From UHGV virus genome UHGV-1522278: a stretch of DNA of 54,320 bases; one strand, written 5' to 3'. The position numbers and the translations under genes are program-made. Under the pieces are notes generated by a model. It did not search any database, was not told the origin of the DNA, and saw nothing but the letters and a program-made list of their open reading frames with translations. The stretch is from a virus. Shown here piece by piece: positions 26,273 to 27,118 of the stretch (positions within the stretch are counted from its first letter, which is position 1; each line of letters begins with the position of its first letter).

Positions 26273-26347
26273 TTATGGTTACTTTTCTGTTGGGTTTATT
26301 TATCGGAATGGCTGCCGCTGTAATATTACTGGTTGGTGAATAATGTT

Positions 26348-26530
26348 ATGGATGATTATATCATTGCCGGATTGATCGGCATTTCTGTATATCTGGTGGG
26401 TTTTATTGCAGTTGCACTAATAAACGCAAAGATCAAGCGCTGGCTGGAGGGCAAGATGATTGACCCGCTCGTTATCCTTTCTTTATGCGTCGCTGTATGG
26501 CTGGCGATCATGATATTCATTGAAAGCTGA
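26348..26530 (+). CDS. small membrane protein (60 aa, two TM segments)
   Basis: ATG at 26348 in the frame of the track ORF 26333-26530. Confidence 0.45.
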   Translation: MDDYIIAGLIGISVYLVGFIAVALINAKIKRWLEGKMIDPLVILSLCVAVWLAIMIFIES

Positions 26531-26624
26531 AGGTATTCACCATGAATATTTACGATCTCATCTGGTGGTCAGTGGTCGCCGTCATTATCTATTTCTGGTG
26601 GAAGAATGTTGTATAGGTGACGGC

Positions 26625-26723
26625 ATGGATATATTCGAATTACTGGCGATTATGTGCGGAATGATGCTAGGCGTTGTCGCCATAATCATAATCATCGGCC
26701 TTGTTATGGGTAGCATCAAATGA
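26625..26723 (+). CDS. small membrane peptide (32 aa)
   Basis: ATG at 26625 with AGGTGA RBS; MDIFELLAIMCGMMLGVVAIIIIIGLVMGSIK. Confidence 0.35.
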   Translation: MDIFELLAIMCGMMLGVVAIIIIIGLVMGSIK

Positions 26724-27118
26724 ACGCATACGAAATGCTATTGCTGGTGGCTGTTATTACAGTTATTGCCGTTGATTTCTATCGAGGGTTTAAAAGATGA
26801 GAGAAGCAGACTTCTTTTGCATGATTATAGTGATTGTCATCGTTGCGGTGCTTTTAAGTGTTAACTGAATCGCAGGAGTTAAAAATGAAATGGCTTGATT
26901 TCTTTTTCCTGATTGTCGCAATTGTTCTAACCATGACCGCGCTGACTCAATAGGTTGTGGCTTGGACGCGCATTTTATGCGCTTCCTAAATTCATCAAGT
27001 CAAATAAAGTGGATGGTAACGATGAAAGAGCTATTCGACTTTCTGGAAACGGTAACATACTGCGCAACATTAATTGCGTGTTTATATATTCTGTGCAAAT
27101 GGTTTTGAGAGGTGAAAT

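Follow-up and report, generated by a model that had tools for sequence, protein, structure and literature searches.

Bacterial inner membranes hold small regulators of the AcrZ, MgtS, MgrB, PmrR, KdpF and CydX class, and filamentous Ff phages carry two adjacent, translationally coupled micro-genes, g7 and g9. In the phage 21 lysis system, signal-anchor-release (SAR) endolysins and pinholins respond to depolarization. Hydrophobic microproteins are abundant in Enterobacteriaceae, where they are under selection and are thought to bind larger membrane proteins (PMC11188072). Among phage lysis regulators, the Mu gp25 releasin is a non-holin membrane protein of N-out/C-in topology with four periplasmic residues that controls SAR endolysin release, and DUF2730 releasins combine an N-terminal, N-out transmembrane domain (TMD) with an anionic cytoplasmic domain of ~70 aa (PMC9239132). 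For Gordonia phages and mycobacteriophages, runs of several holin-like TMD genes beside the lysis genes have been described (PMC9671378, PMC13056207). As a class, small hydrophobic phage proteins are largely unannotated and unexplored. Here we describe a dense tandem array of probable micro-genes for single-helix membrane peptides in the virus genome UHGV-1522278, the whole 54,320-nt stretch of which is called the window; the array segment itself spans ~0.83 kb.

The array (positions 26275-27108, plus strand) consists of eight consecutive ATG-initiated open reading frames (ORFs) of 22-60 aa, with one hydrophobic helix apiece and an acidic N-terminal head in most. The 60-aa ORF holds two modules, so the window contains nine (Table 1). 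An earlier reading of the letters alone, made without database searches (the sequence-only reading), had named about eight tandem micro-ORFs here, and all eight are present with their coordinates and N-terminal strings correct; of its size range of 15-60 aa the upper limit holds and the lower does not, the smallest ORF being 22 aa. Gaps between ORFs measure 2-16 nt, two junctions are ATGA overlaps, and there is a single gap of 68 nt (26954-27021). The array begins 2 nt past the stop codon of a 194-aa gene and ends 10 nt before the small terminase gene terS. Its proposed location between lysis genes and terminase is thus correct, but it does not adjoin the lysis genes, as the 194-aa gene separates it from Rz/Rz1.

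A scan of both strands of the window for strictly transmembrane (TM)-like small ORFs (ATG ORFs of 18-65 codons with a mean hydropathy >= 2.5 over a 15-residue window) returned 11 on the plus and three on the minus strand. Six of the 11 lie within the 0.83 kb of the array, a clustering for which a binomial estimate from the scan counts gives ~6e-9, and two further array members fall only slightly below the threshold. Pairing with the anti-Shine-Dalgarno sequence upstream of module starts ranged from -3.7 to -9.9 kcal/mol against an average of -2.3 at random positions; the sequence-only reading had noted ribosome-binding-site (RBS)-like sequences for most ORFs.

The array region is 85-93% identical to that of the Escherichia phages mEp021, mEp010, mEp013, mEp044, mEp515, mEp554 and MagusPhagus, and a prophage of E. 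coli WCHEC025970 is 99.9% identical across a 1-kb query. The gene order lysis genes, 194-aa gene, array, terS and terL (large terminase) is common to the mEp021-group relatives. Judged by this identity and synteny with the mEp-group phages and the WCHEC025970 prophage, the window is a member of the mEpimmI (mEp021) group, Nus-dependent, non-lambdoid temperate coliphages of a family reported to be prevalent in the human gut (PMC11893012). Comparisons drew on 51 related loci, namely the seven phage records, the WCHEC025970 prophage and IMG/VR contigs found via terS, which together yielded 44 distinct arrays.

Among the ~400 module copies detectable at the DNA level in these arrays, ~97% are intact ORFs. 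The copies that are not comprise a frameshift in module D (L009), the loss of its start codon (ATG to ATA, L027), an ATG-to-ACG change in module J (L020, L025, L035) and a fusion in the window itself. Variable sites within families fall on codon positions 1, 2 and 3 in the numbers 120, 79 and 242; in module G, all ten of ten are third positions. The ratio of non-synonymous to synonymous variation (pN/pS) lies between 0.04 and 0.34 for individual families and, pooled, at 0.21 in the ORF frame versus 1.12 and 1.37 in the +1 and +2 frames, values computed from phylogenetically non-independent pairs and from intact ORFs only, and hence carrying an ascertainment bias; the neighboring terS gave 0.15. 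Reverse frames yielded 0.84, 0.32 and 1.69, and stop codons break them in 50-95% of modules. The value of 0.32 probably belongs to the reverse frame whose wobble positions coincide with those of the forward frame; half of the modules have stops in it. Because the ORFs are intact and pN/pS is low in their own frame and above one in the shifted frames, we take the modules to be real protein-coding genes and very probably functional genes for membrane peptides, with comparative evidence for selection that matches that of the neighboring terminase gene in strength. The check on frame conservation that the sequence-only reading had proposed was thereby passed, and its caveat that the region might be part of one longer gene in homologous phages can be dropped, as this is never so in the relatives. 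Of the translation signals for which it had also asked, Shine-Dalgarno sequences and ATGA coupling are visible in the sequence.

That these are instead chance ORFs in a T-rich non-coding spacer, or in a repeated packaging-recognition region, is a reading to which we give next to no credence and which the comparisons effectively exclude. The ORFs are extremely short, AT-rich intergenic DNA readily yields hydrophobic ORFs (PMC11188072), and the location upstream of terS is one where some phages have cos or pac elements. However, the third-position bias and the pN/pS contrast are specific to the ORF frame, starts, Shine-Dalgarno (SD) sequences and stops are conserved, indels keep to gene boundaries, and no tandem DNA repeats were seen in the array apart from the paralogous genes. 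The terminase, moreover, is of the Sf6 type, whose pac site lies inside the terS gene.

Across the relatives, ~20 peptide families occupy slots in a fixed order, A(variants)-B-[S19]-[S16]-C-D-E-F-G-H-I(8 or 10)-J-K-L-M-terS, and each phage has 3-13 modules, C, F, H and M being near-universal. The slot that is empty in the window holds up to four modules in relatives: I (METIEA/MNAIDI), J (MSDxDF), K (MRESDF) and L (MFEFIDL, 47 aa). Presence and absence are whole-gene events with junctions at the RBS or start codon, in short shared sequence such as TTTAAAAnATGA or ATGAAY. Loss of D and E together (179 nt) joins ...GAAGGTrTTCAC to ATGAAC, loss of G (88 nt) occurs inside TTTAAAAnATGArA, and loss of E (91 nt) joins ...ATAGGTGA to AGCATGAAC. 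Such junctions are what would be expected from unequal recombination between similar translation-initiation regions.

Shuffle tests between slots at the protein level gave z = 6.9 for S16-F, 6.6 for D-X25, 6.3 for G-K, 5.0 for H-K and 4.6 for G-H; the same-slot alternative alleles I8-I10 and M3-M15 scored 7.4 and 8.1. As whole-sequence shuffling is inflated by the common head-core-tail architecture (mean z = 1.05), paralogy was judged solely from the highest-scoring pairs and from similarity of the DNA, which includes the upstream region and links G-H, G-K, F-S16 and D-S16. On these comparisons, paralogy is clear within G/H/K and within D/F/S16/X25. The paralogy first suspected for the peptides at large thus stands for these sets; a single origin of all families is plausible, 22-26 residues being too short to demonstrate it for every slot. 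Directly upstream of the array in mEp013 (L005, 778-1783), a 177-aa ORF and an HNH-endonuclease gene replace the 194-aa gene, a swap that suggests the left edge of the array to be a recombination or insertion hotspot.

Table 1 Features of the window within and around the micro-gene array; modules seen in relatives only are listed without position.
Feature	Position	Strand	Remarks	Occurrence among 44 arrays	pN/pS
Module A, 22 aa, MVTFLLGLFIGMAAAVILLVGE (MVTFLL...)	26275-26343	+	SD GGGGGTG, dG -9.9	intact in 18/44	0.23
60-aa ORF (MDDYII...FIES)	26348-26530	+	in-frame B+C fusion; one G fewer than WCHEC025970 and L009		
Module B (MDDYII...)	N-terminal part of 26348-26530	+	31-38 aa in relatives	36/44	
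Module C, 24 aa, MIDPLVILSLCVAVWLAIMIFIES (MIDPL...)	26456-26530	+	own ATG, GGAGGG SD upstream, dG -9.8	41/44, all intact	0.29
Module D, 24 aa, MNIYDLIWWSVVAVIIYFWWKNVV (MNIYDL...)	26542-26616	+		31/44, intact in 29	0.28
Module E, 32 aa, MDIFELLAIMCGMMLGVVAIIIIIGLVMGSIK (MDIFEL...)	26625-26723	+	SD AGGTGA	22/44	0.13
Module F, 26 aa, MNAYEMLLLVAVITVIAVDFYRGFKR (MNAYEM...)	26720-26800	+	ATGA overlap with stop of E	41/44, all intact	0.25
Module G, 23 aa, MREADFFCMIIVIVIVAVLLSVN (MREADF...)	26797-26868	+	ATGA overlap with stop of F	18/44, all intact	0.04
Module H, 22 aa, MKWLDFFFLIVAIVLTMTALTQ (MKWLDF...)	26885-26953	+	SD AGGAG, 6-nt spacer, dG -6.9	41/44, all intact	0.12
Empty slot, 68 nt	26954-27021	+	from slot maps; insertions of relatives versus the window at 26954-26978		
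Module J				30/44	
Module K				11/44	
Module L				8/44	
Module M, 28 aa, MKELFDFLETVTYCATLIACLYILCKWF (MKELFDF...)	27022-27108	+	in-frame alternative ATG at 27013	M or M15 family in 44/44	0.07
Lysis cassette: class II holin (66 aa), lysozyme, Rz, embedded Rz1	24257-25408	+	Pfam Phage_holin_2_3, Phage_lysozyme, Phage_lysis, Rz1		
194-aa gene	25688-26272	+	invariant HExxH...NETY motif; Lys/Glu-rich tail		
terS, Sf6-type small terminase	27119-27604	+	Pfam Sf6_terminase 2e-37		
terL, large terminase	27601-29085	+	Terminase_6C		
Early micro-ORF, 35 aa, MKKIAMLAAF...	12230-12337	+			
Early micro-ORF, 38 aa, MRVDKNTVRAVF...	12345-12461	+			
Early micro-ORF, 21 aa, MQKMAILLFY...	12474-12539	+			

The 60-aa ORF owes its two helices to a 1-nt deletion that joins B to C. 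The WCHEC025970 prophage and the IMG/VR contig L009 have one G more than the window in the run GGAGGGGCAAG (~26448-26451), which is the SD sequence of module C itself; the window keeps the ATG of C at 26456, and all other arrays with both B and C encode them as separate ORFs. Either a true mutation or a sequencing error in the homopolymer could account for the deletion.

Standard annotation largely passes the array by. In WCHEC025970 and the other E. coli genomes checked, PGAP places a single coding sequence in it, WP_130624254.1 (26520-26723, 67 aa, TTG start), whose cluster of 41 members consists entirely of 'hypothetical protein' entries. The sequence-only reading had suspected this ORF to be a chimera, and it is: module E extended N-terminally across D in another frame, as argued by the independent occurrence of D and E in relatives, the selection signal in D's own frame and a TTG that lacks an SD sequence (pairing energy at 26520, -1.9 kcal/mol). 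The exact 32-aa sequence of module E is found in the protein collection, again labelled 'hypothetical protein'. The mEp021 record has nothing annotated in the array, and for the other mEp phages PHANOTATE called 3-6 ORFs there, several being upstream extensions; in mEp010, for instance, the annotated ORFs 1727-1930, 1908-2075 and 2162-2305 stand against modules at 1749-1823/1832-1930, 1927-2007/2004-2075 and 2170-2244/2237-2305. The expectation that annotation would miss or mis-frame these genes was therefore well founded.

Searches of Pfam, PHROGs and PADLOC with the micro-peptides and the 194-aa protein found no significant family, and NCBIfam, searched with the neighboring proteins only, likewise gave no family match. 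The only PHROG 'holin' matches were at E = 0.04 for the 47-aa module L, which occurs in relatives and not in the window, and at E = 0.01 for the tail of the 194-aa protein. No Rfam family was found over 25300-27300 at E<=1. A tblastn search with the concatenated peptides against 50,697 phage records recovered only the seven mEp-group phages, the concatenated query reached only those IMG/VR contigs already found with terS, and phmmer, run exhaustively over 1.84 billion representatives with the 60-aa fusion as query, retrieved only the B and C families themselves. A concatenate of 13 families, run against a collection of 5.8 billion proteins, produced 8000 word candidates and none at E<=0.1, an uninformative result given probable saturation by unrelated TM proteins.

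When species-representative genomes were scanned by terL, two loci emerged, of which a Providencia prophage (terL 67% identical) has no array. The array is likewise missing from all ten unique terS relatives examined at 41-46% identity. Two of these distant relatives (L106, 2111-2482; L116, 1824-2213) have a shorter, 123-129-aa homolog (MAKTKWPKLPRFLVPLF...) of the 194-aa gene that directly adjoins terS, without intervening micro-ORFs, which suggests this to be the ancestral arrangement. As the distant terminase relatives lack the array and two of them have the 194-aa homolog next to terS, the array looks like a lineage-specific insertion and expansion between these two genes. Our literature search found no description of it: the mEpimmI paper (PMC11893012) is silent on transmembrane or small proteins at this place, and a review of phage small proteins has no mention of the array. 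Within the literature searched, the density of the array (nine to thirteen genes of 22-47 codons in ~1 kb), its partial paralogy, the copy-number variation of cassettes in fixed order and the restriction to one phage group appear to be undescribed.

The peptides share a simple architecture. Window modules are 22-38 aa long (with B counted as in relatives), their single uncharged helix takes up 13-27 residues, and mean Kyte-Doolittle hydropathy lies between 0.7 and 2.3. The typical head reads M-x-x-(Y/F/L/I)-(D/E)-hydrophobic, and the N-terminal flank is net-negative in 16 of 22 family consensus sequences and positive in only one. An uncharged core of 13-30 residues follows, uniformly hydrophobic and not amphipathic, and most peptides end with no C-terminal domain or with one of 1-4 residues. 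The C-terminal flank is neutral or basic in 18 of the 22 families; it is basic in B, D, E, F, L, M, S16 and A14, about half of the families have a neutral one or none at all, and A7 and C end in acidic residues. G, H, I, J and K have an acidic or neutral head and no C-tail. For these peptides, insertion into the inner membrane is predicted to proceed independently of any signal peptide. Owing to the positive-inside rule and the analogy with the Pf3 coat protein, an N-out/C-in topology is predicted for the basic-tailed members, whose acidic head would be periplasmic and whose C-terminus cytoplasmic after YidC- and proton-motive force (pmf)-driven insertion of the Pf3-coat type. Tail-less peptides might adopt either orientation.

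What might such peptides do? The explanation we favor, to which taken as a whole we give even chances, is that a duplicated micro-gene array supplies late membrane peptides that tune lysis. The nine micro-genes would have arisen by tandem duplication and been reshuffled by unequal recombination at their start regions. They would be transcribed within a late operon that runs from the lysis genes through the 194-aa gene and the array to terS and terL, a membership suggested by the lack of a promoter and by the tight ORF chain from the 194-aa gene to terL. As to the former, no sigma-70-like promoter was detected on either strand of 24626-27700, or on the minus strand of 24000-27700, by a consensus scan that is crude and makes this a weak negative. 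Between Rz/Rz1 and the 194-aa gene lies a hairpin followed by a T-run (25578-25610, plus strand; AAAACGG...CCGTTTTT), the counterpart of which is annotated as a terminator in mEp021; late transcription into the array and the terminase genes may need antitermination. Translation would proceed along a chain of close or overlapping cistrons, each with its own SD sequence or ATGA overlap. Once inserted, the peptides would act as transmembrane-helix binders and, late in infection, affect how the holin oligomerizes, whether the SAR anchor is kept or released, or how the membrane is energized, and through these the timing of lysis and the burst size. Envelope processes other than lysis, likewise late in the infection, are a further candidate for their action.

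Modulation of the membrane step of lysis is the likeliest single role of the peptides, with the Mu gp25 releasin as a precedent (PMC9239132), though we put it forward only tentatively. It is preferred because the presumed late expression would bring the peptides together with a class II holin and an endolysin of the SAR type, a system whose timing hinges on what happens within the bilayer. The phage holin indeed matches Phage_holin_2_3 at 1.8e-14, and the Gly/Ala-rich N-terminus of the lysozyme resembles a SAR domain. We infer the translation, membrane insertion, topology, expression timing and target of the peptides, and several points weigh against the explanation. The frame-shifted control on the same alignments covers effects of composition and answers the ascertainment bias only in part; translation and membrane insertion are predictions from sequence; and with half of the families lacking a basic C-tail, topology may vary between modules. 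The lysis cassette is already complete without the array, from which both the terminator-like hairpin and the 194-aa gene separate it, and why tuning lysis should need 3-13 different peptides has no explanation. Mimicry by the peptides of the phage's own holin, SAR, Rz and Rz1 TMDs was considered and rejected, the best z values of 2.5-4.4 among 56 comparisons coming from short, unconvincing alignments.

A role in conflict is the next candidate, if an unlikely one: the helices would block an inner-membrane DNA-entry component of rival phages or neutralize abortive-infection effectors of the host. The cassette-like content among close relatives, with 3-13 modules and alternative alleles (I8 versus I10), reads as the mosaic of an arms race, the lysis-terminase interval carries accessory genes in more distant relatives, and the group is known for other exclusion genes, the Lpp lipoproteins (PMC11893012). 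However, no promoter-like site for expression from the prophage was found, selection is purifying rather than diversifying in each family, the near-universal C, F, H and M look like a core function, and the PADLOC search gave no matches. Somewhat less probable still is a broader version, a counter-defense or competition system in the form of a lineage-specific, expanding and contracting 'library' of minimal TM helices, each disabling a different inner-membrane target. As part of the same doubtful proposal, the set would have its origin in the interval that separates the metallopeptidase-like gene from terS, and unequal crossing-over at shared start regions would have diversified it; its targets could be abortive-infection pore or effector proteins, DNA-entry components of rivals, or division and envelope proteins.

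We consider it improbable that the peptides are depolarizing toxins, of the type I or single-gene-lysis kind, that halt host growth, kill the cell or set off the holin through pmf collapse. Their size and hydrophobicity resemble those of Ibs, Ldr, TisB and ShoB-type toxins, such toxins commonly come in tandem duplicates, and depolarization is a signal to which SAR endolysins and pinholins of the phage 21 kind respond; yet no antisense promoter and no Rfam antitoxin or small RNA match was found, the ORFs are translationally coupled members of a polycistron where such toxins have a single cistron behind a structured leader, the cores show uniform hydrophobicity instead of amphipathicity, and early depolarization would be costly for a phage with a SAR endolysin. 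More improbable again is a mere relay, in which the ORF chain takes over ribosomes from the 194-aa gene, hands them on to terS and fixes the stoichiometry of the terminase, with hydrophobicity a by-product of T-rich sequence. An unbroken chain that leads up to terS, a module M that always abuts terS, a GC content that drops to 41-43% over the array and the direct contact of the 194-aa homolog with terS in L106 and L116 would all suit it. But a relay has no need of the amino acid conservation seen here (pN/pS 0.21 overall and 0.04-0.13 for G, M, H and E), the number of steps varies from 3 to 13 without apparent need, and the window has an uncoupled gap of 68 nt before M.

The 194-aa protein next to the array is probably a SprT/zincin-like metallopeptidase, judging by its motif. 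One homolog is named 'PolyVal metallopeptidase', the Lys/Glu-rich tail is disordered, and the AlphaFold 2 (AF2) model matches widespread uncharacterized phage proteins of 110-150 aa, a few of them labelled SprT-like or metalloprotease; Pfam and PDB gave no significant match. Just after Rz/Rz1, distant terS relatives such as L107 (938-1090) and L108 (1399-1551) have a conserved, unannotated 50-aa ORF with one hydrophobic helix (MPSMIAIILLIILHIWLCRQGG...), a further small membrane ORF between lysis and terminase genes, here in another phage group. On the far side of the terminase genes, PGAP names the WCHEC025970 gene that follows terL (L008, 5966-7002; ~29143-30534, plus strand, in the window) 'anti-CBASS protein Acb1 family protein', which may be a mis-annotation, as the slot right behind terL is the expected place of a portal gene. 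The early region of the window contains a second, smaller run of three tandem hydrophobic micro-ORFs (12230-12539, plus strand); in contrast to the main array, it encodes basic N-termini. Among phage records its DNA is found only in MagusPhagus (90%) and mEp010 (76%), where the ORFs are annotated as hypothetical proteins.

Up to 13 genes of this little-explored class are thus packed into ~1 kb in a gut-prevalent coliphage family (PMC11893012). As mEp021, mEp010 and others can be cultivated on E. coli K-12, function is directly testable, with the natural mosaic of presence and absence as a ready genetic series. The locus also offers a clean case of micro-gene birth and expansion through tandem duplication.

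How does the array compare with what has been described? Like accessory lysis proteins (antiholins, the pinholin TMD1 acting in trans, Mu gp25), its peptides are small one-TMD products of phage late genes near lysis genes, and the four periplasmic residues of Mu gp25 recall their short heads (PMC9239132). However, those proteins have 70-130 aa and soluble domains and are encoded by one to few genes, whereas an array has 3-13 genes for 20-47 aa with practically no extramembrane domain. A holin typically has one or more TMDs, carries a charged and hydrophilic C-terminal domain and is encoded beside the endolysin. The array peptides have the TMD, most end with no C-terminal domain or a very short one, and the array starts ~1.3 kb downstream of the endolysin, past Rz/Rz1 and the 194-aa gene (the lysis cassette as a whole lies ~0.9-2 kb upstream). 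No peptide matches a Pfam holin family above cut-off. Nor is there a match to PF10805, the DUF2730 releasin family, whose cytoplasmic domain the peptides lack.

Small inner-membrane proteins of Enterobacteriaceae resemble the array in being shorter than 50 aa, in having a single TMD, in being missed by annotation and in evolving under purifying selection. They differ in being single, dispersed chromosomal genes with their own regulation, rather than multi-copy paralogs in a phage late operon, and family and protein searches detected no sequence relationship between the two. Type I toxins found in tandem (ibs/sib, ldr/rdl, zor/orz, hok) are, like the array peptides, very hydrophobic, short (18-50 aa), often duplicated and often located in prophages, and all array peptides are hydrophobic and within the size limit of <60 aa typical of such toxins. 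Unlike them, the array has no detectable antisense RNA gene or promoter and no Rfam match, and its coupled, co-directional ORFs carry an acidic N-terminal motif. A comparable build is that of the Pf3 coat protein, of a 32-44-aa class without signal sequence, with an acidic N-tail, one TMD and a basic C-tail, an architecture shared by B, D, E, F, L, M, S16 and A14; it supplies, by analogy, the model for their insertion. Yet Pf3 coat, like the products of Ff g7 and g9, is a virion component of a filamentous phage, whereas the array belongs to a tailed siphovirus with an Sf6-type terminase and shows no sequence similarity to either.

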